Notes: generated from the letters alone by a model not told the origin. Numbered from the stretch's first letter, positions 46,536 to 60,000 are shown. The stretch: DNA of 64,000 bases from an uncultured delta proteobacterium (GCA_963841435.1 CAWJCS010000006.1:992001-1056000); one strand, 5' to 3'. Numbers and translations are program-made.

Positions 46536-47054
46536 TCACGTTTCGGGCGCGCCCGAGCTCGAGCTGACGAATCCCACCGATTCACCGAGCTCGTCGCGCG
46601 GCTCGCGCGATGCGGACCTCGCCTGGCTCGCGAGCCACGCTTCGAGTCGGGATGCGACGGCGATGCCGACGAGCATCGTCGCGACGAAGCCCAGGGCTCC
46701 TGCGCCGCCGGAAGCCAGGGCGACGACGCTCGGCCCCGGGCAGTAGCCGGCGAGCCCCCAGCCGACGCCGAAAATCGCGGCGCCCACGAGCAGCCGGGCG
46801 TCGATGGGCCCCTTGACCGCGAACGAGCTACGCGCGCTCGACGGCGGCGCGCTCTTCGTCAACGCTCGCACTCCGAGCGCGTGCACGCCGATGGCCCCGA
46901 CCATCACCAAGGCGAGCGAGGGGTCCCAGGCACCCGCCAGATCGAGGAAGCCGAGCACCTTTTCGGGTTGGGTCATCCCGCTCAGCAAGAGCCCGACGCC
47001 GAACACGGCGCCGCTCGCGAGCGAGGCGAGAGCGACCTTGCTGGCGTGGCTCAT
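46536..47054 (-). CDS. YeeE/YedE-family sulfur transporter half (DUF6691-like)
   Basis: FGVGLLLSGMTQPEKVLGFLD, WDPSL, FGVGWGLAGYCPGP. Confidence 0.88.
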   Translation of the reverse strand: MSHASKVALASLASGAVFGVGLLLSGMTQPEKVLGFLDLAGAWDPSLALVMVGAIGVHALGVRALTKSAPPSSARSSFAVKGPIDARLLVGAAIFGVGWGLAGYCPGPSVVALASGGAGALGFVATMLVGIAVASRLEAWLASQARSASREPRDELGESVGFVSSSSGAPET

Positions 47055-47479
47055 GGTCCGCCACCGAGCAGGTGAGCGAGCGACGCGGTCAGCATGCCGG
47101 TCGCGACGAACGTCACGGTGGCGACGAGCGAGCGCACGGACCCTCGGCTCAAGCCGCACACGCCGTGGCCGCTCGTGCAGCCGCTGCTCAGGCGCGTGCC
47201 CATTCCCACGAGGAACCCGCCGACCAGCAGCGTTCCGAGGGTCCGAGGTGAAGCGGCAATCGCGTTCGAGCCGGCCAGAATCGAAACCGCGCCAGCGGCG
47301 AGCAAGCCTGTCACGAACAGAAGTCGCCAACGTACGTCGCCCGGCCGCGGGACGGCGAGCCCTGCGACGATGCCGCTCACGCCGGCAATGCGGCCCGTGA
47401 GCGCGAGCAACAAGGTGGCGGCGAGGCCCAGCAACGCGCCGCCGGCCAGCGCAGCTATGGGAGTGAAGGTCTGGGTCAT
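47051..47479 (-). CDS. YeeE/YedE-family sulfur transporter half
   Basis: GRIAGVSGI, GCTSGHGVCGLSR. Confidence 0.9.
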   Translation of the reverse strand: MTQTFTPIAALAGGALLGLAATLLLALTGRIAGVSGIVAGLAVPRPGDVRWRLLFVTGLLAAGAVSILAGSNAIAASPRTLGTLLVGGFLVGMGTRLSSGCTSGHGVCGLSRGSVRSLVATVTFVATGMLTASLAHLLGGGP

Positions 47480-47544: not shown

Positions 47545-48750
47545 CTAACGCCCCGGCCGGCCGCCGGTCGCGGCGCCGGTCGTGAACGTCCACTCGAAAT
47601 GCAGCGGCGATGTGTCGCGGGTCGCCTCGATGGCGACGCGGTAGGTGGTGTTCGCCGTGAGCGGCGCGTCCGTGTAGAGCACCTTCGCGTAGTCGGGTAG
47701 GGTGGGGTCGTCGCTGTCGAGCCACTGGTGCATGAGCTCCTCGGTCGTTCCATCGACGACGATGGAATGGCTCGAGACGGTGATGCTTTTCGCGTAGAGC
47801 GTCACGGGAAATCCGCTCGGCCAACCCGTGGCGGGCATGGGTGGCTCGGGGCCTTCGCGGCTGCCGTCGAAGGACGTTGGCACGCCGGTTTGATCGGCGT
47901 ACGGGTAGAAGGCCGTGACGTTGGCGGCGGTCATCGCGCCGGTGCCGTAGTCGATCGTGTCGCAGCCGTCACCGAAGCCGTAGCCGAGCTCGCGTGTCCA
48001 GGGATCCAGCACGGGAGTGCGGTGATACACCGAGTTGACGAACATCATGGTCGAGGTCACCGGGTCACCGGCGAACGCCATGCATTCGGAACCGCCGCGT
48101 CCCGTGTAGCCGGCGGCGCGCATCCGATCGCCGAGACCTGCGCCGGTGAACCCAGGGCAGCCCATGATTTCGTTGTGGGGGCTCGGCGCCTCGCACATCG
48201 CGTCGCCCTGGTTCTGAACGTAGTAGTCGCAGTGGTTTTGGGCGCTCGTGATGAGCTCGGCGACGAGCGTGGCGCAGTCGAGGCCCATGGCGAGCCTGAG
48301 CTCGTTCTCCGTGTTCAGTGCGACGACGGCTTCGTCGGGGACGCCCACGGGAGGGGCCGGGCACGAATCGAGCCCTGGCGTCGTGCCGCCCGTGCCCGCG
48401 TCACCGGCAGCGCCCGCTCCCGCGCTGCCCGCGGTACCGGCACCACCAACGCCCGCGGTTCCCGCGTCCCCGGCGCTCGCTCCGCCGCTCGCGAGCCCGG
48501 CTCCACCGGCGGCTCCGCCGCCGAGGCCTGCCGCCCCCGCACCGGACTGACCGGCGACGCTACCGGCGCTCCCGCCCGCTCCCGCTGCCGTCCCAGCCTG
48601 CCCGCCGCTTGCCGCGGCGCCGCCTTGTCCGCCGCTCGCGCTCATCGTTCCGCCGGAGCCGCCGGTGCTCGGAATGCCGAGATCGTCTTGCCCGCTGCTG
48701 CAACCGAGCAGTGGGGTCAGGGCCAGTAGAAACCACGGCGTATGGCGCAT
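47545..48750 (-). CDS. CAP/SCP-domain lipoprotein with Gly-rich linker
   Basis: Lipobox LLGC; NELRLAMGL, SAQNHCDY, H, RMRAAGY, SVYHRTPVLDP, GYG. Confidence 0.85.
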   Translation of the reverse strand: MRHTPWFLLALTPLLGCSSGQDDLGIPSTGGSGGTMSASGGQGGAAASGGQAGTAAGAGGSAGSVAGQSGAGAAGLGGGAAGGAGLASGGASAGDAGTAGVGGAGTAGSAGAGAAGDAGTGGTTPGLDSCPAPPVGVPDEAVVALNTENELRLAMGLDCATLVAELITSAQNHCDYYVQNQGDAMCEAPSPHNEIMGCPGFTGAGLGDRMRAAGYTGRGGSECMAFAGDPVTSTMMFVNSVYHRTPVLDPWTRELGYGFGDGCDTIDYGTGAMTAANVTAFYPYADQTGVPTSFDGSREGPEPPMPATGWPSGFPVTLYAKSITVSSHSIVVDGTTEELMHQWLDSDDPTLPDYAKVLYTDAPLTANTTYRVAIEATRDTSPLHFEWTFTTGAATGGRPGR

Positions 48751-48804
48751 GACCGTTAAGTGTCTCGAGAGCGCGCGCTCGGGGCGAAAATCGGGATGAG
48801 GACC

Positions 48805-48864
48805 CGTGCAAGCTCTTGCACGATGCAGCGCCTTGCACGCGTCGGCGGTGCGCGGGCGTGCACG
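48805..48864. promoter_or_regulatory. Three tandem TGC(A/G)-N6-TGCA boxes, putative enhancer or regulator binding sites
   Basis: Perfect palindrome CGTGCAAG-CT-CTTGCACG (48805-48822), TGCAGCGCCTTGCA (48824-48837), TGCGCGGGCGTGCA (48849-48862); each ends in TGCACG. Confidence 0.6.
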
Positions 48865-48903
48865 TCGATCGACGCACCCGCGCAAATCACGGCGATTCAT
48901 GCA

Positions 48904-48919
48904 CGGCACAGCCCTTGCT
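48904..48919 (+). promoter_or_regulatory. Sigma-54 (-24/-12) promoter
   Basis: CGGCAC-AGCCC-TTGCT matches YGGCAC-N5-TTGC with exact GG-N10-GC spacing, 32 nt before the ATG; SD GGAGGAG follows. Confidence 0.72.
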
Positions 48920-48951
48920 CTTCCCAGGTCGAACCCACGGAGGAGAACGAC

Positions 48952-51507
48952 ATGAGGCTTGGAAAATTCTTTGGGACCGCACTCGTCCTGACCCTTGGGA
49001 CTGCGAGCATCGCGTGCAGCTCGGGCTCGCGCGCCGGCGCCGACAGTGACGGCGACGGTAGGCCCGACGTGGTGGATCTTTGTCCCGGCACGACCAACGC
49101 CATCGCGGGTCCTGACGGTTGCGCGAAGGGAGAGGACGGCGACGCCGACGGTCTCGACACCGGTGACGATCTCTGCCCCGGCACGCCCACGGGCGCCGAC
49201 GTCGACGCTTACGGTTGCTCGGCCGAGCAACGGGCCGCCGGCGTCGGTGCGGGCGTATTCGGCGGTGCGACGCGAGGCGTTGACGAGCGCTTGCCGGGTG
49301 AGGCTCCGGATGGCGTGACATCGGGCGATTCGCAGGGCAACGAGGTTGACGTCGCGGGCCCGCTCGCTCCTGCGGCATCGACCGCAGAGGAGGCGCAGGC
49401 GTTGCTCGACGACCCGCCGGAGACGGGCTCCGTCAGGAACGGCTTCGTCGCGCTTGTCGTCGATCGCCAAAGCGACCGTCCGCTCGTGTTCTTCACGTTC
49501 GCCTCGAACGTCACGACGCTCGAAAACGGCTACGAGGTGCACGGCGCGTTGCTCCTGACGACACCGCTCGGCCAGGTACCCATCGCGAACGCATCGGTCG
49601 TCTTCGAGAAAGGCGACGACCCGAAGTATGGCCTCGAGCGGGTGCGCGGCTTCGTCGGTATGCCGTTCCCCGTCGCCGGCGCGCTCCGGGGCTTCGAGGT
49701 CGACGATCTCGTGACGGCGTCGATCGGCCTCGACTGGGGGAAGAACCTGAAGGACCTCGAGGCGCCCATCCACGACGATCGGAAGTACCTGTTCTTCCAC
49801 TACCAAACGGGGTTCGAGGCGAGGAGCGGTCCCATCAGCATCACGCTCCCCGGCGCCGCCGACGCGACGCTGATTTTCGATCCCTTCGATCCTTTCCTGT
49901 TCGCGCGGGGCAGCTTGCTCGGTCTGTCGGCGCTCGGCCCGGTCGAAGACGTCGCGCTCGGCCTTTCGGCACGCGGCCGGATCCCGTTCGCGCCAGAGAC
50001 CACCTTCGAGCTCGGCGCCGGTATCGAGCCGTTCGAAGGGCAGCTCTACTTCGGGGGCTCCGTGCCGCTCGCGCGCCTCCCGATGACGCTGAGCGGGCAC
50101 ATGGTGCTCGACATCGACCCGAACGGCGACGGACGCCCGCTCGGCGCGATCGACCAGGCCGGCATGGAGCTCGGCTTGAACGGCGACGTGGCGCTCACGG
50201 CGAGCTTTCTCGACATCCTGAGCTTCGAGGCACCCATCGGTCAGGCGACGGTCGGGCTGCGCGTTACCGGCGACGAACAGCAGGCTTACTTGTCCGGCGT
50301 GATCGAGCCCGACCAGTCGTTCTTGCCCGACGAGCTGCCGCTTCGCGCCGAGCAGACGATCGAGGTAGCGGGCTTCATCAGTAGCGAGATCGAGGATTCG
50401 TACCTGGTTCTCGAGGGTGAGTACCGGATGGTGGGCTCGAGTCTCACGCAGAAGGTCGGCGTGGATCTCTCGGACCTCGCCGTCGCCGAGGCCCGGCTCG
50501 ACGTCGATCGCCGTGGCTTCCGCCTCGCGGGAACGATGCGCGTGGGCGTCACGCTGGCCAAGGACCTCGAAATCGGTGGCGGCGCGGCGGTCGAAGCGTT
50601 CTTTGCCGACGACCCGGCCGACTTCTACGTGCGCATCACCGGTGACGTGACGGTTGCCGGACAGGAGCTGTTCGACGCCCGCGTGCGCATGGATGCCCAC
50701 GGGCTCTTCGTCGAAGGCGAGCTCGATACCGGCGTGAGCCGCATCGCCGTGACGGGGTTCATCACCCAGAGAGGCGCCGAGCTCGGCGGCGAAGCGTCGG
50801 TCCACATCCCCGTGCAGACCGGCAAGAAGGTGCTGGAGACGCTCGTCGATGGCGCCATCTGCGGCTACGAGGCGGTGACGGACGGCGCGAAATGCGGCTA
50901 CGAGGTCGTCAGCGACGGCGCCGTGTGCGGCTACGAGAAGGTGACGGACGGTGCCGTGTGCGGGTACCAGACGGTGACGAACGGCGCGGTGTGCGGCTAC
51001 CAAACGGTGACGAGCGGCGCGTTGTGCGGCTACCAGACGGTGACGAGCGGCGTGCTCTGCGGGACGCACGAGGTGTGCAAGTGGCTCGGCGCGATTGGTA
51101 TCCACGTCTGTGACGACGCGCCCAACACCTGCTCGGTGCCGAAGACCTGCACCGATCCGAGCGCGCCGAAGACGTGTACCGACCTCTCGCTGCCGAAGAC
51201 CTGCAACGACCTCGCAAAGCCCAAGACGTGCGCCGATCTCGCTCGGCCCAAGACCTGCGCCGATCTCGAAAAGCCGCGGACGTGCGAGCACGAGAGCGTG
51301 ATCCCGGATTTCGACTACGGCACGCTCGAGGGCAAGATCGCGCTATCGCTCGGAACGCGCGGGCTTTCGGGTGAGGTGAGCGGCGACTACTGCGAAAGCG
51401 GCGGCGGCTGCACGCGCCTCGCGGGCGGCCGCGTGAAGGTCGGCGACCCGCTGACGGCGTGCATCGACGTGCCGCCCGGGCTCGGCGAGTTCTGCGCGCC
51501 CTTCTGA
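48952..51507 (+). CDS. Large lipoprotein: TSP3-like Ca-binding repeats, long beta-rich body, symmetric 16-Cys repeat insert
   Basis: Strong SD; lipobox SIAC; DSDGDGRPDVVDLCP and DGDADGLDTGDDLCP; alternating hydrophobic strands; two Cys repeat arrays. Confidence 0.88.
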   Translation: MRLGKFFGTALVLTLGTASIACSSGSRAGADSDGDGRPDVVDLCPGTTNAIAGPDGCAKGEDGDADGLDTGDDLCPGTPTGADVDAYGCSAEQRAAGVGAGVFGGATRGVDERLPGEAPDGVTSGDSQGNEVDVAGPLAPAASTAEEAQALLDDPPETGSVRNGFVALVVDRQSDRPLVFFTFASNVTTLENGYEVHGALLLTTPLGQVPIANASVVFEKGDDPKYGLERVRGFVGMPFPVAGALRGFEVDDLVTASIGLDWGKNLKDLEAPIHDDRKYLFFHYQTGFEARSGPISITLPGAADATLIFDPFDPFLFARGSLLGLSALGPVEDVALGLSARGRIPFAPETTFELGAGIEPFEGQLYFGGSVPLARLPMTLSGHMVLDIDPNGDGRPLGAIDQAGMELGLNGDVALTASFLDILSFEAPIGQATVGLRVTGDEQQAYLSGVIEPDQSFLPDELPLRAEQTIEVAGFISSEIEDSYLVLEGEYRMVGSSLTQKVGVDLSDLAVAEARLDVDRRGFRLAGTMRVGVTLAKDLEIGGGAAVEAFFADDPADFYVRITGDVTVAGQELFDARVRMDAHGLFVEGELDTGVSRIAVTGFITQRGAELGGEASVHIPVQTGKKVLETLVDGAICGYEAVTDGAKCGYEVVSDGAVCGYEKVTDGAVCGYQTVTNGAVCGYQTVTSGALCGYQTVTSGVLCGTHEVCKWLGAIGIHVCDDAPNTCSVPKTCTDPSAPKTCTDLSLPKTCNDLAKPKTCADLARPKTCADLEKPRTCEHESVIPDFDYGTLEGKIALSLGTRGLSGEVSGDYCESGGGCTRLAGGRVKVGDPLTACIDVPPGLGEFCAPF
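50842..51285 (+). repeat. Two intragenic tandem arrays: 7 x 33 bp (VTxGAxCGYxx) and 7 x about 27 bp (xDLxxPKTC)
   Basis: Read directly, e.g. gtgacggacggtgccgtgtgcgggtaccagacg and gacctcgcaaagcccaagacgtgcgcc. The first two return units are shorter. Confidence 0.92.
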
Positions 51508-51569: not shown

Positions 51570-53054
51570 TCAGGGCGCTTTTCGGACGGCGTGCAGGATC
51601 GCGAGCCGGGTGCCTCGCCCGGCGACGGGCGGGGACGGTTCGGTGAGGGTCCCGTCCGGCTGGATCTGGAAGCTGTGCGTGTCTACGTCAGTGGTGACGA
51701 ACAGGTGCCGGCCGGTTCGGTTGACGGCGAGATCTCCGGGCCTCGTCAGGGGGATGCCGCTCACGCCGTTCAGCGTGTCGTCGTCGAGGTCGATGAGCTC
51801 GGGCTGCGCGGTGCCTGCCTTGAAGGCCCAGAGTGCGTCGCCGCCCACGGCGTAGACGAACCCGCCGGCGGGGTGGACCGCCATCCGCGAAAGTTCCAGG
51901 TTCCCGTTCGGGGTCGAACCGGCGTACGGCGCAAGCCTCGGTGAAAACGACCTCACGCTGAACGATTCGAGGTGGTCCCCGAAGAGGACGTAGACGAGCT
52001 CACCGGACGGGGCGACCGCGACCTGTTGGGGCGGGTACCCGTCGTTGATGTCGAGTGCGGCCGTGTCGCGGGGGGAAAGCGTTCCCGCCTGCGCGTCGAA
52101 AGAGACGGCGTTCACGGTGCTCGAGAACGAATACGGGTCCTGGATGACGTACACCCAGGCGCCCGACGGATCGAACACGGGCGACCACGGCTTGTTGATG
52201 GAAAGCCGCTCTAGCTGGGCAATTCGACCGGGGTACTGGTCGTGGTCGAACGAATAGAGGTAGACGCCGCCGCCGGAGCCGTTGCTGTCCCCGTTCGCGA
52301 CCAAAAGGAAGTCGTGGTCCAGCCCCGCGGGGCCCGCGAGCATTGCGCCCGTGGCGTATTGCGTGGTGGGCTCACCCGACGTTTCCATCGGCTGGGTTTG
52401 CAGGCTCTCCTCGAGCTCGAGCGTGTCCGGATCGACGTTGAAGGTGTGCGTGATCTGGCCGCCTTTTCCACTGAGGGCCACCACGTGCTGCCGGTCGGGG
52501 GCCGAGAGCAGGTCACCGCTGACACTGGAGGCGTGTTGGATCACGCTAAGGGGCGTGGCGTCGAGCCCGCCCGATGGCTCGACTCCGAACCCGACGAGGT
52601 TGGGCGAGGAACTCTCTTTCATGACGTACACCGCGACGGGCGCGAGCTCGCACCGCGGATCGGCGAGCGCCTCCTCGCCGTCGCAGCTCACCGGGCCCGC
52701 GCCGCCCTCGCCCGCCGCGCCGCCGGGCGCCTCACCCGCCGCGCCACCGGGCGCCTCACCCGCCGCGCCGCCCGCCGCGGTGCCGCCACGCCCGCCGACG
52801 CTCGAGCCCGCTTGACCACCTTTTCCGCCGCGGCCGCCGAGATCCTGAGCCCCCGCCTCGCCGCCCTCGCCGGCCTGTCCTCCCTCGTTGCTTTTCGGCG
52901 GCTCGCCGAACGCGTAGCGATCCAAATCGAGGGTCAACGAGCACGCCGAGCCGAGCACGCCGAGCACGACCCAGCCGCCGAGCGTGCGCCGGGCACGGCC
53001 GCCCGAGCGCGACCTCGAGGTGCGGTCGGGCGGGGCAGTCAGCTTCGGGCGCAT
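51570..53054 (-). CDS. Lipoprotein with Gly-rich linker and lactonase-like beta-propeller
   Basis: Lipobox LGSAC-SLTLDL; blades such as FDPSGAWVYV, VAPSGELVYV, VHPAGGFVYAV, VNRTGRHLFV. Confidence 0.82.
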   Translation of the reverse strand: MRPKLTAPPDRTSRSRSGGRARRTLGGWVVLGVLGSACSLTLDLDRYAFGEPPKSNEGGQAGEGGEAGAQDLGGRGGKGGQAGSSVGGRGGTAAGGAAGEAPGGAAGEAPGGAAGEGGAGPVSCDGEEALADPRCELAPVAVYVMKESSSPNLVGFGVEPSGGLDATPLSVIQHASSVSGDLLSAPDRQHVVALSGKGGQITHTFNVDPDTLELEESLQTQPMETSGEPTTQYATGAMLAGPAGLDHDFLLVANGDSNGSGGGVYLYSFDHDQYPGRIAQLERLSINKPWSPVFDPSGAWVYVIQDPYSFSSTVNAVSFDAQAGTLSPRDTAALDINDGYPPQQVAVAPSGELVYVLFGDHLESFSVRSFSPRLAPYAGSTPNGNLELSRMAVHPAGGFVYAVGGDALWAFKAGTAQPELIDLDDDTLNGVSGIPLTRPGDLAVNRTGRHLFVTTDVDTHSFQIQPDGTLTEPSPPVAGRGTRLAILHAVRKAP

Positions 53055-53165
53055 GGGTCGTTGAACGTAAAAGGAGACGCTCCGACCGTGCGCTCGAACG
53101 CCGACGGCCGCAAGCCCGGGCGCGCTTCTTGCGCGGGCCGCGCCCTTCGGGCCTACTCGTGGGCG

Positions 53166-54218
53166 ATGAGCGACAAGAGGTTGGCCGCCCAACGCGTTGC
53201 GCTCGGTCTCGTGCTTTCGCTCGGGGCTCCCTCGGTGCGCGCAGAGCCCGCGCCGACGGCGTCCGACGCGACGGCGTCCGACGCGACGGCACGCGCCCGC
53301 GCCGACACCCTCTTCCGCGAGGGGCGCCAGCTGATCGCCGAGGGAAAACTGGAGCTCGCCTGCACGCGCTTCGAGCAGAGCCAGTCGCTCGACCCGTCAC
53401 CCGGGACGCTCCTCAATCTCGGCGCGTGCCACGAAAAGCGCGGCGACCTCGTGCGCGCGCAGCAGGACTTCGAGCGTGCTTCGGCCCTCGCGCTAAAGCA
53501 CCCGGATCCGACGCGGCGCAGGGCGTGGACGGCCGCGGCCGAGAAGGAGCTCGGGGCGCTCACGCCACGCATTCCGAAGCTTCGCTTGAAGCTTCCCGCG
53601 ACTCCCTCGCTCGGTGTGTGGCTCGACGGCGCCGAGCTCGCGCAACCACTGCCCGAGGCGGGGACGCTCGTCAACCCGGGCGCCCACGCGATCGAGGCCC
53701 GGGCGCCCAGTCGGGCGACGTGGCACGCGTCCCTCAGCGTCGCCGAAGGCGAGGTGTCGAGCGTGGTCATCCCCGAGCTCGTGCCGCTCCTCGCACCCGA
53801 GCCGGCGGCACCCGCCGGGCACGACGGGGGCGCTGCAGCCTCGCGCGTCCCGGCGTTCGTGGCATTCGGGGCGTCGGGGGCGCTCCTCGGTGCTGGCGTC
53901 GTGACCGGTGTGCTCGCAAAGTCCGCCCAAGCAGACCTCGACGAGCGCTGCACCGCTCCGGATCCAGCGCGGCCCGGCGGTGTGCTCTGCGATCCGTCGT
54001 TGCGCTCGACGCGCGACCGTGCGCGGACGCTCAGCATCGTCACCGACGTGCTCTGGGTCGGCGCGGTGGCGAGCGCGGGGCTCGGCGCGTACTTCTGGCT
54101 CAGCGCGCCGGCTCACGACGACCGGGGCGCGGAGCCGGCGTCGCGCGATGCTGCGGCACGTGTCTCGGCTGGCTGTGACGGCACGGGCTGCGCGCTCGCC
54201 GTCGCGGGCGCGTTCTGA
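53166..54218 (+). CDS. TPR + PEGA-like domain protein with C-terminal hydrophobic segments
   Basis: ADTLFREGRQL...ACTRFEQSQSLDPSPGTLLNLGACHE (TPR), VWLDG...VNPGAHAIEARAP (PEGA-like), ends AGAF. Confidence 0.85.
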   Translation: MSDKRLAAQRVALGLVLSLGAPSVRAEPAPTASDATASDATARARADTLFREGRQLIAEGKLELACTRFEQSQSLDPSPGTLLNLGACHEKRGDLVRAQQDFERASALALKHPDPTRRRAWTAAAEKELGALTPRIPKLRLKLPATPSLGVWLDGAELAQPLPEAGTLVNPGAHAIEARAPSRATWHASLSVAEGEVSSVVIPELVPLLAPEPAAPAGHDGGAAASRVPAFVAFGASGALLGAGVVTGVLAKSAQADLDERCTAPDPARPGGVLCDPSLRSTRDRARTLSIVTDVLWVGAVASAGLGAYFWLSAPAHDDRGAEPASRDAAARVSAGCDGTGCALAVAGAF

Positions 54219-55850: not shown

Positions 55851-57242
<1,392 letters not shown>

Positions 57243-57887: not shown

Positions 57888-58922
57888 TCACCCAGCGTCG
57901 GGCGTCGAGAGGTCGGGTCGCGACGTCGCGAGATCGCGCAGGATCTCGGCGACGGCTTCGTAGAGCGCTTCGGGGATCTCGTCGCCGATCTCGAGCTCGG
58001 CGAGCGCGCGGGCCACGGGCACGTCCCGAACGCAGGGGATGCCGTAGGCGTGCGCCGCCTCGATGATGCGCCGCGCGAGGTCGCCGTGGCCGAGTGCGAC
58101 GAGCCTGGGCGCCTCGTCCTCGCCCTCGACGTAGCGCAGCGCGCTCGCGACGTGCGTGGGATTCACGACGACCACGGTCGCGTCCTTGACGGCATTGACA
58201 ATCGACCCCGCGAGGGCTTCCTGGTGCGCGCGGCGGCGCCTCGCCTTGATCTCGGGGTCGCCTTCGGCTTCCCGGTGCTCGCGGCGCACGTCGTCCTTGG
58301 TCATGCGGTGGCGGAGCCGAAATGCCCGATGCTGCAGCGCCACGTCGATTCCGGCGAGCGCGAGCCCGACGAGCGCCGCCTCGACGCCGAGCTGCTTGCC
58401 GAGCGTCGCGACGAGCGGCCCGATGGTATCCGGGTTGCCGGCGGCGTTCACGAGGTCCGCGGCGTGGTCGCGCAGCGTGACGAAGCAAAGGACGCCGACG
58501 GCGCCCGCCGCGACGAGCGCGCGCGCGAGCCCGGCGATGCGTTCCATGCGAAACAGGGCGGAAAGCCCCGCGATGGGATCGAGCCGCTCGAGCTTGGGCG
58601 TGAGCCGCGTGCCAGAGAAGACGCCGCCCGTCTGCACGAGCGAGACGGCGCCGGCCGTGAAGGCGACGGCGAGGAGGATGGGTAACGAGAGGAGGAGCAC
58701 CTCGACGGGTAGCGTCACCGCCGTCGACGCGGGTCGGCCGGCGAGCGCCCGGTGCAAGAGCTCGCTCGCGCGCGCCGCCGTGGCGACGATCGCGCCCGGC
58801 ACGAGCAACACCGCCGCCCACAGCGAAAGCGCCTGGCCGAGCGCGTGGGAAAGCGGGCTGTCGCCCTCTTCACGCGCCTTTCTCAGCCGGCGCGGCGAGG
58901 GCTCCTCGGTCTTCATCGCCAT
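57888..58922 (-). CDS. FlhB/EscU/YscU (SctU) family type III export switch protein
   Basis: KTEEPSPRRLRKAREEG, PKLERLDP, MTKDDVRREHREAEGDPEIK, VVVNPTH autocleavage motif, IPEALYEAVAEIL. Confidence 0.93.
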   Translation of the reverse strand: MAMKTEEPSPRRLRKAREEGDSPLSHALGQALSLWAAVLLVPGAIVATAARASELLHRALAGRPASTAVTLPVEVLLLSLPILLAVAFTAGAVSLVQTGGVFSGTRLTPKLERLDPIAGLSALFRMERIAGLARALVAAGAVGVLCFVTLRDHAADLVNAAGNPDTIGPLVATLGKQLGVEAALVGLALAGIDVALQHRAFRLRHRMTKDDVRREHREAEGDPEIKARRRRAHQEALAGSIVNAVKDATVVVVNPTHVASALRYVEGEDEAPRLVALGHGDLARRIIEAAHAYGIPCVRDVPVARALAELEIGDEIPEALYEAVAEILRDLATSRPDLSTPDAG

Positions 58923-58989
58923 GGTTGCCCCGCATCGGTCGCCGTGTGCTCCGAGTTGCCGCCCTGTTCCACGCGCCCTCCGATCGGCC

Positions 58990-60000
58990 CTAAAAGAAAG
59001 GGTAAGGCAGTCCGCGACCCCCGGTGCCACGCCAGGCGTTGGCCGTCTGTTGGATGATGGGGATGCGGAGCGCGGGCGATGGGTGACTGCGCTCGAAGCC
59101 GAACAGGATGTCGGCGGGCGTCAGCTGGTCCAGGCCGCTGAAGAACTGCATGGTGAGGAGCGCGCCACCCTCGGTGAAGTGATAGCCGTTGCGTCGCGCG
59201 CCCGCCGTGAGCGCGTCGTTCAGGCCCGACACGTCCGCGGCGATCTCGTTCGGCTGGTTGAAAAGGGGTACGGTGTCGGCGAGCACGCGACCGATCTCGG
59301 CGGCCGGCAGCGCGCCCGCGCCCGCGCAGGGCAGGTGCCCGAGATAGTGGTGGGCGAGCTCGTGACCGAGCACGAAGGCGATCTCTTCGTCGAGCACCTC
59401 GCGTTGGCGCGCGAGCTTTTGGGGATTCTGATCCATGGCCGGGTCGAAGAAGCCCGCCGGCGGCCGCACGATCGGCCGTTTCGGGCGCTGGTCACGGGCG
59501 ATGATCGCGATGTACTCGCCCACCTTGTTGGTTCGAAAGAGCTCGTCGATGGCCCTCGCGCGCGCCAGGTGGGCCTGGATGTCGAAGAGCCCGTCGGTGA
59601 CGGCCATCGCCGCGCGTCCGTCGCGCGTGCAGGTCGCGAACGCGTTCACCTCGCCGGGCGAGCCGTCGACGACGAGCGGGATGTTGGCGACGCGGCCGTT
59701 CTGCAAGGGCGGCAGCGCGGCCACGAGCTCCGCCAGGATGCCGCTCGCCTCGGTGCGCAAGAAAGGCAGATCGACGTTGTTGATGGGGTCGGGGCCCGAC
59801 GGCGCGACGGCGACGGGCGGCATACCCGTCGTCACGGGAGCGCCCGGCTGGGCCGGGTAGCCGGGTGACGGTGCGGGCGCAGCGTACTGCGGCGCGTAGG
59901 CGGGCGGCGGCGCCTGGTTCGAGCTGCTCTTGCAGCCCGACGAAAGGAGGGTGACGAGCCCGAGGCCGAGCGGCGCGAAAGGGAGGTGCGGACGACGCAT
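58990..60000 (-). CDS. M48 family zinc metalloprotease lipoprotein
   Basis: Lipobox LSSGC, VNAFA, EIAFVLGHELAH, NEIAAD, SHP...RI. Confidence 0.88.
   Translation of the reverse strand: MRRPHLPFAPLGLGLVTLLSSGCKSSSNQAPPPAYAPQYAAPAPSPGYPAQPGAPVTTGMPPVAVAPSGPDPINNVDLPFLRTEASGILAELVAALPPLQNGRVANIPLVVDGSPGEVNAFATCTRDGRAAMAVTDGLFDIQAHLARARAIDELFRTNKVGEYIAIIARDQRPKRPIVRPPAGFFDPAMDQNPQKLARQREVLDEEIAFVLGHELAHHYLGHLPCAGAGALPAAEIGRVLADTVPLFNQPNEIAADVSGLNDALTAGARRNGYHFTEGGALLTMQFFSGLDQLTPADILFGFERSHPSPALRIPIIQQTANAWRGTGGRGLPYPFF

Follow-up and report, generated by a model that had tools for sequence, protein, structure and literature searches.

A putative disulfide-laddered stalk built from two count-matched repeat arrays in a lipoprotein family of Polyangiaceae and their relatives

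The window analyzed here, a stretch of 64,000 nucleotides (nt) from an uncultured delta proteobacterium (GCA_963841435.1 CAWJCS010000006.1:992001-1056000), encodes on its plus strand (48952..51507, stop codon within the range) an 851-residue lipoprotein, P0002, which contains a module of two different tandem repeat arrays with eight Cys residues each, separated by a short hydrophobic loop. We propose that the module is an autonomous, disulfide-laddered two-arm stalk that holds out an aromatic or aliphatic tip. The probability of this account as a whole is put at about 0.6, which is a compromise between its two parts: a nested disulfide ladder joining the arms is considered highly probable, and the assignment of the tip as the functional end of a reach-out stalk stands at roughly even odds. 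The anatomy of the module, the matching of its Cys counts, the co-variation of its arrays, its modularity and the aromatic character of its tips are established.

Translation of positions 50842-51285 (+) yields 148 residues with 16 Cys, i.e., residues 637, 648, 659, 670, 681, 692, 703 and 709 in the first arm (N-arm), and 720, 727, 733, 742, 751, 760, 769 and 778 in the second (C-arm). The spacing is thus six times 11 and once 6, a central 11 that spans the loop KWLGAIGIHV, and then 7, 6 and five times 9. Tandem Repeats Finder independently reports two arrays, one with a period of 33 nt (5.8 copies, 83% matches, 50860-51052) and one with a period of 27 nt (4.9 copies, 77% matches, 51138-51268). 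The initial annotation, made from the DNA alone, had described seven 11-residue units, an eighth Cys, a 10-residue loop and seven units of type x-T-C, mostly of 9 residues, with eight Cys on each side of the loop and with the whole inserted between two β-strands. The repeats are reproduced by translation, the count of eight holds for both sides (residues 637-709 versus 720-778), and AlphaFold2 predicts 25-residue strands (E608-632 and E777-801) on either side of the insert. The two-arm layout is not a product of chance, since it recurs in 134 collected homologues. The parts of the module and its base are as follows.

50773..50847 (+), first base strand of the stalk, residues 608-632 (DSSP E608-632, AlphaFold2 model)
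50848..51078 (+), N-arm, residues 633-709, with eight Cys in 11-residue units of the form x-G-A-x-C-G-Y-x-x-V-T; net charge -5
51079..51108 (+), loop KWLGAIGIHV at the tip, residues 710-719, flanked by Cys709 and Cys720; predicted local distance difference test score (pLDDT) <50
51109..51285 (+), C-arm, residues 720-778, with eight Cys in units that end P-K/N/R-T-C and are 7, 6 and then five times 9 residues long; net charge +1
51286..51354 (+), second base strand of the stalk, residues 779-801 (DSSP E777-801)

Relatives were collected from a word-seeded search, which returned 37 homologues, all unnamed or 'hypothetical' and from Polyangiaceae or metagenome-assembled genomes of Myxococcota as well as metagenomes, and from an exhaustive HMMER search with 1856 matches at E<=1e-3 (100 at E<=1e-30), the best 150 of which were taken as the sequence set. 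A module-only search added further relatives, and a search for shorter proteins added mostly fragments. The module is present in 134 of the 234 collected proteins, and 130 were analyzed as complete after four had been set aside, namely P0217 (C-arm broken), P0047 (ends within an arm), and P0119 and P0221 (cluster merges with neighboring Cys). The number of Cys is even in 128 of these 130 modules and ranges from 8 to 22 (8 Cys in 10 modules, 10 in 13, 12 in 11, 14 in 12, 16 in 23, 18 in 56, 20 in one and 22 in two). The odd counts belong to P0142 (7) and P0233 (13); in the latter, three Cys of the preceding domain are merged into the cluster and the module proper is 5+5. When modules with the same spacing are collapsed, 72 distinct patterns remain, 70 of them even, and in 65 of the 70 all non-central gaps of 10 or more lie on one side of the central gap. 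The period therefore switches exactly at the midpoint, and the arms are equal in Cys, between 4+4 and 11+11. The pattern is clean in, e.g., P0030 (11x4, 11, 6x4), P0194 (11x6, 11, 6x6), P0048 (11x8, 20, 6x8) and P0055 (11x10, 8, 6x10).

Equal counts in present-day proteins are accompanied by coordinated change. Across the 70 even patterns, the numbers of 11-type and short gaps correlate with r=0.79. Trees for the co-variation analysis were built from the protein body minus the insert, and 11-type gaps and terminal short gaps were counted without assuming symmetry. In an IQ-TREE 'quick' tree, 20 independent sister pairs differ in total Cys; 15 of these show a change of both arms in the same direction, 3 a change of a single arm and 2 opposite changes, and the change is identical in size in 10 (r=0.79). 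FastTree yields 26 independent pairs that differ in 11-type gaps, with a contrast correlation of r=0.82 and a slope of 0.92. The 1:1 co-variation of copy numbers that a paired-arm architecture had been predicted to leave among homologues is hence present, and has arisen many times (15 of 20 independent pairs in the same direction).

The way in which the Cys would pair is constrained by several features of the family. With an odd number of Cys in each arm, as in 83 of 128 proteins, bonds confined to a single arm would leave Cys unpaired. Tips of 1-23 residues, together with base ends that are joined to adjacent strands, place the arms antiparallel and side by side. Two related proteins, P0045 with 16 Cys and P0186 with 20, both contain a pair of over-long units, one on either arm (18 residues where 11 are usual, and 12 where 6 are usual), and nested register places the two units of each pair between rungs 4 and 5 from the base; P0186 has two additional tip-side rungs on both arms, and a parallel register would misalign the long units. 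In P0058 and P0070, the short-period arm precedes the 11-period arm and the counts are still 6+6 and 9+9. That the arm-swapped proteins stay equal assigns the constraint to mutual pairing and not to sequence order. Among 127 distinct modules, 102 have a net negative N-arm and 83 a net positive C-arm, and in 107 the charge of the C-arm lies above that of the N-arm; by computed net charge the arms are electrostatically complementary. Parity, arm matching, odd per-arm counts and the register of the irregular rungs all argue for the nested antiparallel cross-arm disulfides that the initial annotation had put forward, with the pairing itself deduced from these features.

The tip differs from the arms in composition. 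In 103 distinct tips, W makes up 7.9%, F 9.4%, L 9.2% and G 15.3% of residues, while W and F do not exceed 1.5% and 1.6%, respectively, in the arms, and 83 of the 103 tips contain W, F or Y, in agreement with the hydrophobic character ascribed to the loop at the outset. Recurrent motifs are W-x-N-P-[LF]-K-W-G, V-S-[SV]-[LI]-[FW] and G-W-F-S-W-A-G, the first of which is found in separate lineages, including one arm-swapped protein. The further expectation that the tip would be hypervariable is not borne out: in 285 pairs of relatives with identical Cys spacing, a requirement that biases the comparison toward conserved tips, identity is 0.71 in the tip, 0.67 and 0.62 in the arms, and 0.77 and 0.71 in the flanks. 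Across larger distances, the length and sequence of the tip vary and its character is retained.

The position occupied by the module in P0002 can be filled in other ways. Both flanks of the insert were mapped in 132 proteins, of which 110 carry a Cys ladder, 19 a long insert rich in helix-forming residues, and 3 a short insert (13, 41 and 61 residues); as only the best 150 of 1856 matches to a ladder-type query entered the set, this census is biased toward the ladder type. The 19 helix-rich inserts are 145-198 residues long, with a fraction of A/E/L/K/Q/R/M of 0.47-0.61, and mostly have 0-2 Cys (13 in P0066). In about 14 of them, 5-9 W/Y/F residues are concentrated within a 21-residue window at a relative position of 0.38-0.56, as exemplified by NWYKRQAWYKKSWAYAKYRAY in P0084, and for the pooled inserts aromatic residues amount to 27% in the midpoint window versus 3.6% elsewhere. 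The first arm of these inserts displays a hydrophobic period of 3.53 residues. P0066, P0077 and P0149 combine helix-rich arms with a knob of 12-13 Cys at the midpoint, and in four relatives the aromatic midpoint is closed by a single Cys pair. Helix-rich inserts of about 165 residues with a midpoint rich in Trp, Tyr and Lys were noted in P0080, P0084, P0088, P0094, P0097, P0099, P0105, P0109, P0116, P0133, P0138 and others. The insert types group together on the body tree, where the three types require five changes compared with a mean of 21 after shuffling, and the helical type alone requires two. The family therefore possesses a fixed slot for a fold-back stalk, occupied by the proposed cystine ladder or by another insert, most likely an antiparallel helical hairpin, in both cases with an aromatic cluster at the fold-back point. 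Two insert types in one slot, both with aromatic tips, constitute the best evidence that selection keeps the combination of stalk and tip rather than the Cys chemistry itself.

The ladder also occurs outside the lipoprotein body, which identifies it as an autonomous unit. It is located C-terminal to a Peptidase_S8 domain in P0222, N-terminal to a Metallophos domain in P0221 (module proper 7+7), and is N-terminal also in P0119. In P0167, P0190, P0220 and P0233 (5+5), it forms a C-terminal tail that ends in Cys. P0218, recorded under the red alga Rhodosorus marinus on a 2.2-Mb contig, has an 8+8 ladder at the extreme C-terminus of its 684 residues, which could reflect inter-domain transfer or contamination. 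The protein looks secreted, its final residue is the last Cys of the module, and the metagenomic P0190 and P0220 share this architecture.

A whole-protein AlphaFold2 model of P0002, computed with 36 homologues, has a mean pLDDT of 76 and a predicted template modeling score of 0.57. The insert scores 70-80 except at the tip, which is below 50. In the N-arm, seven units are predicted, each with a four-residue helical turn that ends at the Cys and is followed by a strand of four to five residues, and the C-arm is modeled as a nearly continuous strand (E720-775). The predicted secondary structure is consistent with the arms forming a ribbon (pLDDT 70-80), and the module prolongs the hairpin made by the two 25-residue strands at its base.

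From these observations a mechanism can be outlined, in which we infer the disulfide pairing, the rigidity and length of the stalk, its cellular location and the target of its tip. Following Sec-dependent export and lipidation, the acidic arm of 11-residue repeats and the basic arm of 6- or 9-residue repeats would align in antiparallel orientation, and nested cystines, from C637-C778 to C709-C720, would staple the arms together with one rung per repeat pair. The product would be a thin ribbon, resistant to protease and shear, that prolongs the β-hairpin of the body and presents a short loop enriched in aromatic and aliphatic residues and in Gly. Each rung may contribute approximately 2 nm (an extended unit of 6 residues, or an 11-residue unit made of a helical turn and a five-residue strand), and eight rungs may reach about 12-19 nm, as estimated from residue counts alone. 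The number of rungs, 4 to 11 in relatives, would set the length of the stalk, and both arrays would have to change together because unpaired Cys would be selected against. A lipid anchor would keep the β-rich body attached to the outer membrane, and the tip would most likely contact a hydrophobic or interfacial target, e.g., another membrane or the surface of a hydrophobic polymer.

A number of observations weigh against this account. The disulfide pairing has been deduced indirectly. Folded alone, the module gives a poor model (mean pLDDT 56, mid-arms below 50, and about 80 only at the three tip-proximal rungs), for which the alignment was dominated by relatives with a 6-residue period. A unit of 11 residues must match units of both 6 and 9 residues, so one of the arms has to bulge. 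Of the 70 even patterns, five do not pass the strict one-sided test, including two from the proteins with irregular rungs; P0142 has seven Cys, P0119 was set aside because its cluster of 29 runs into additional Cys on its flanks, and P0222, with 18 Cys, is irregular near the tip and its arms are not obviously matched. The FastTree pairs, with their noisier counts, change in the same way in only 15 of 26 cases, with 5 unchanged and 6 going opposite ways (p=0.078 in a sign test); the discordant pairs mostly have equal Cys totals and are off by +/-1 owing to irregularities close to the tip. The helicity of the alternative inserts is suggested by composition and periodicity only, and their second arm peaks at a period of 2.31 residues instead of 3.5. 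The module in the window is net acidic (N-arm -5, C-arm +1, tip +1), which disfavors simple binding to anionic membranes. A location of the lipoprotein on the cell surface is an assumption, and none of the five neighbors in the window is conserved beside homologues, so that the neighborhood provides no hint as to function.

The question of what the tip contributes separates the proposed stalk from a simpler possibility, in which the ladder is real and acts as a mere strut, stabilizer or spacer that braces the β-body in oxidizing, protease-rich soil, with the loop being just a turn. The near-equal conservation of arms and tip in close relatives (0.67 and 0.62 versus 0.71) would fit such a role, as would the very short tips of some modules (LFGG, GLIG, IFG, and a single S in P0222), the three of 19 long helix-rich inserts that have no aromatic cluster (P0147, P0164 and P0170), and the Cys-rich tandem repeats of TraA, which have been proposed simply as a rigid stalk (PMC3325183). 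However, an exposed hydrophobic end loop is needless for a pure strut, aromatic residues are enriched at the midpoint of two chemically unrelated stalk types, and W-x-N-P-[LF]-K-W-G recurs in separate lineages and in an arm-swapped protein; we therefore regard a strut without a functional tip as unlikely. A different arrangement of the disulfides, with bonds between neighboring repeats or in a knot that would give a compact Cys-rich domain of the granulin or EGF type, could be accommodated by the poor mid-arm of the module-only model, by the indirect assignment of the pairs, and by extra Cys close to the tip (C-G-W-D-C ... C-S-C) that could make a small local knot. It is nevertheless improbable: odd per-arm counts in 83 of 128 proteins rule out a purely within-arm scheme, the range of 4 to 11 rungs with unchanged unit sequences is what an open-ended repeat, rather than a fixed knot, typically shows, the irregular unit of P0186 sits at the nested-equivalent position, and tips of 1-23 residues with base ends that join adjacent strands force the arms to be antiparallel.

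Two further readings were considered. Myxobacteria are predators, and the module might be a membrane-attacking, defensin-like weapon against prey or competitors, a giant cationic β-hairpin that is displayed or released. Disulfide-cyclized β-hairpin peptides are described as an established antimicrobial class (PMC13001179), the tips are hydrophobic or aromatic, and 17 of 127 distinct modules are clearly cationic (net charge at least +5 and as high as +23), with C-arms rich in Lys (P0043, P0074, P0038 and P0104). On the other hand, the module in the window is acidic, 33 of 127 modules have a net charge of -5 or lower, and the charge averages -1.35 over the family; the sequence shows no obvious processing site, and the search for shorter proteins returned 10 matches, mostly fragments at contig ends, with no small stand-alone version among them. 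We rate this as very unlikely. Least of all do we favor the binding of metal or redox chemistry by the Cys arrays in the manner of metallothioneins or zinc ribbons, in place of disulfides, for which the chance appears slight: Cys are dense (16 in 142 residues), but the protein is exported, with signal peptide and lipobox, 83 of 128 proteins have counts that four does not divide (10, 14, 18 and 22), the units lack conserved His, CxxC or CxxCH and are spaced by 11 and by 6 or 9 residues, and clusters give no rationale for the strict 1:1 matching of the arms. Returning to the disulfide-laddered stalk, a bolder version can be formulated, in which a new class of protein building block, a length-programmable 'cystine-ladder hairpin' of two heterologous tandem repeats that grow and shrink together, would be exchangeable in evolution with an antiparallel helical hairpin at one slot of an outer-membrane lipoprotein. 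It would push a Trp/Phe-rich loop some 10-20 nm out from the cell, into the membrane of another cell or onto a hydrophobic surface, for contact with prey or kin, and would have been grafted onto secreted hydrolases and have reached a eukaryote; this extension is tentative and we hold it to be rather doubtful.

No named family was found for the architecture, as had been supposed at the outset, and no relative turned up in Pfam, NCBIfam or the PDB. Pfam matches neither the module nor the body, and the only signal is a sub-threshold TSP_3 at the N-terminus. A search of NCBIfam at E<=1 returned only NF053612 (13.4 bits) and no Cys-repeat family, where the presence of TIGR04201 in the release used is unconfirmed. 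Against PDB sequences, the whole protein has no match at E<=1 and the module only matches at E>=0.42, and the ESM Atlas gave no usable match. In the literature, surveyed mainly at the level of titles and abstracts, nothing resembling the module was found, and small cystine-ladder peptides and the TraA stalk are what came up; the 'cysteine ladder' of leucine-rich repeat proteins shares the name and is unrelated.

Structural comparisons give a similar picture. Foldseek with the whole model against the PDB yields nothing at E<=1e-3, the top rows being teneurin, Rhs and Tc shells with template modeling scores of about 0.05. For the module-only model, VIA-align reports a best Z of 2.8, with seven chains at Z>=2, from which, given the poor model, newness of the fold does not follow. 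The body produces a best Z of 7.5, with a root mean square deviation of 3.3 Å over 128 residues, for the N-terminal domain of LptD versus model residues 449-607, and β-jellyrolls of LptC, LptA, LptH and TamB also appear at Z 5-7, in a range (Z <8) that is common for unrelated models. The Lpt/TamB 'beta-taco' theme is recurrent at model residues ~420-612 (window ~50209-50787), within the range of noise. The Lpt/TamB-like matches to the model hint at a possible lipid-binding groove in the body.

Within its own 7.78-Mb genome the gene is single copy, and a six-frame scan of that genome detects no further copy of either repeat type beyond the P0002 gene. Occurrence is patchy: the gene was found in 10 of 36 genomes of the same genus and in none of 24 that represent other families of the order, although many of the genomes in both groups are incomplete. 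Small shares of the sequence are contained in three soil-metagenome DNA runs, and no RNA run is among the sequencing runs listed as containing it.

The mechanical open reading frame that encloses the gene extends over 48760-51507. ATG 48952 is the likely start; it is preceded by GGAGGAG, a signal peptide and lipobox open the resulting product, and homologues begin alike. By inspection, P0002 starts with a signal peptide that ends in a lipobox Cys, and the N-termini at homologous loci are equivalent and end in ...SGC, ...AGC or ...AAC. The N-terminal region resembles TSP_3 (PF02412), for which residues 30-49 give E=0.0055 and 16.8 bits, under the gathering cut-off of 25, so that family membership falls short of the threshold; a TSP_3 match at E<=0.01 is seen in 9 of 36 family members. 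In the C-terminal part, C814 and C837 are invariant in the body alignment and C820 and C848 nearly so, and this end of the protein is also kept in relatives with the helical type of stalk. The remaining features of the gene are listed below.

48904..48918 (+), sigma-54 type -24/-12 promoter-like element CGGCAC-N5-TTGC, 34 nt 5' of the start codon
48939..48945 (+), ribosome-binding site GGAGGAG, read directly from the sequence
48952..49017 (+), signal peptide and lipobox MRLGKFFGTALVLTLGTASIA-C22, assigned by inspection and not with a dedicated predictor
49039..49239 (+), Asp-rich repeats like thrombospondin type 3 (calcium-binding type), residues 30-96, sub-threshold Pfam TSP_3
49399..50772 (+), β-rich body, N-terminal part, ~residues 150-607, almost all strand in the AlphaFold2 model, pLDDT mostly 70-94
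51355..51504 (+), C-terminal part of the body with Cys814, 820, 837 and 848, ending ...GEFCAPF

The upstream element CGGCAC-N5-TTGC deviates by one mismatch from TGGCAC-N5-TTGC and is one of two sites with at most one mismatch in the window. In 8 of 15 loci, an element of this quality precedes the homologue by no more than 220 nt, mostly as the sole such site per locus; besides the window, these loci are L002, L004, L005, L008, L013, L014 and L017. At the sequence level, a GG-N10-GC signature is thus present upstream and kept in orthologues, and expression of the lipoprotein gene is probably sigma-54-dependent. Genes for NtrC-type activators are situated at 55851-57242 in the window, and at 8387-9778 in L005, 733-2121 in L016, 1993-3552 in L004 and 11276-14311 in L002; their proximity may be due to chance, as myxobacteria encode many such activators.

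The neighbors of the gene in the window are two lipoprotein-like genes without a known family, a split Sulf_transp pair, PspA and a TPR protein, all unrelated to the module. Clustering of open reading frames, all against all, over the fetched loci returned only antisense shadow frames, sigma-54 activators and an Lnb_N protein (two loci). The flanking genes at 47545-48750 (-), which encodes 401 residues starting MRHTPWFLLALTPLLGC, and at 51570-53192 (-), which encodes 540 residues, specify lipoprotein-like or secreted proteins with Gly/Ala-rich low-complexity linkers; neither product has a Pfam family or is conserved beside homologues. The small overlapping genes 46536-47075 (-) and 47051-47479 (-) correspond to the halves of a YeeE/YedE-type sulfur transporter (DUF6691/Sulf_transp and Sulf_transp), and 57888-59030 (-) is an export-gate gene of the FlhB/YscU/SpaS family (Bac_export_2, E=1.8e-86) in this Polyangiaceae-type genome.

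With respect to oxidative folding, the own genome contains two VKOR matches and 13 matches to DsbA-like Thioredoxin_4, so the organism should be able to oxidize exported Cys; DsbB has no match in the 95%-complete assembly. One VKOR homologue is directly followed by a DsbA-like domain, and several Thioredoxin_4 matches are arranged in tandem clusters. Sites noted for these genes are C3:874117-874542, C5:1723157-1724110, C2:869578-872112 and C5:1552984-1554741. Together these matches suggest an expanded, VKOR-based oxidative folding system.

The proteins described here define an unannotated family of large β-rich lipoproteins with a dedicated stalk slot in soil Polyangiaceae and relatives, and this family, which is apparently under sigma-54 control, offers a handle on cell-surface function in poorly studied predatory and social bacteria. 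With at least about 15 independent coordinated changes seen, it also represents a natural system for the evolution of coupled repeat expansion.

Among known systems, the closest counterparts to the proposed ladder are small peptides. In theta-defensins, protegrin, tachyplesin and gomesin, antiparallel strands are connected by parallel disulfide rungs and an end turn, with two to three rungs in about 18 residues. The module would share with these the two antiparallel cross-braced strands and the turn, and a subset of modules is strongly cationic. In contrast to peptides with strands of the same kind, however, modules have 4-11 rungs in 60-180 residues and two different repeats (11 versus 6 or 9 residues); the module of P0002 (residues 637-778) is embedded in an 851-residue lipoprotein, or elsewhere appended to large proteins, and does not stand alone; and its arms carry -5 and +1, with only 17 of 127 modules reaching +5. 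No sequence relationship to cystine-ladder peptides was found in the Pfam, NCBIfam and PDB sequence searches. If the account is true, it extends the cystine-ladder principle from peptides of two to three rungs to genetically tunable rods of 4-11 rungs, which would be attractive for protein engineering as rigid, covalently braced spacers.

The Tenebrio molitor antifreeze protein consists of 12-residue Cys repeats in a disulfide-braced β-helix, i.e., a one-directional solenoid. The likeness lies in short Thr/Cys-rich repeats of 11-12 residues, one disulfide per repeat and a regular rod; the difference is that its disulfides lie inside each coil, and that there is neither a second arm nor a tip. 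It is absent from the structural matches to the poor module-only model, an absence that is not conclusive. The arms of SMC and Rad50-type proteins are antiparallel coiled coils in which the chain runs out and back with a functional element at the fold-back. The out-and-back course of the chain, the matched arm lengths and the functional element at the fold-back are features in common with the proposed stalk; the SMC/Rad50-type arms, however, are α-helical with a hydrophobic heptad core, whereas the ladder would be an extended ribbon with covalent rungs.

TraA is a myxobacterial cell-surface protein, and its variable number of Cys-rich repeats has been proposed to form a rigid stalk that presents a recognition element (PMC3325183). 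TraA (TIGR04201) has a single, unidirectional type of repeat, presumably with intra-repeat disulfides, and its functional PA14 domain is a separate globular domain; in P0002, the chain folds back, the arms would pair with each other, and the element presented is only a loop. The stalk of bacterial fibrillar adhesins likewise projects a binding element from the cell (PMC9210967), but is a chain of globular repeat domains with an adhesive domain at its end, unlike the single two-stranded ribbon ending in a loop that is envisaged here. What distinguishes the module from all systems compared is a trait absent from each of them, i.e., two heterologous repeat arrays kept at equal copy number by mutual pairing, and if this is true, the module would be the first example found of two different tandem arrays in one protein that are forced to equal copy number.

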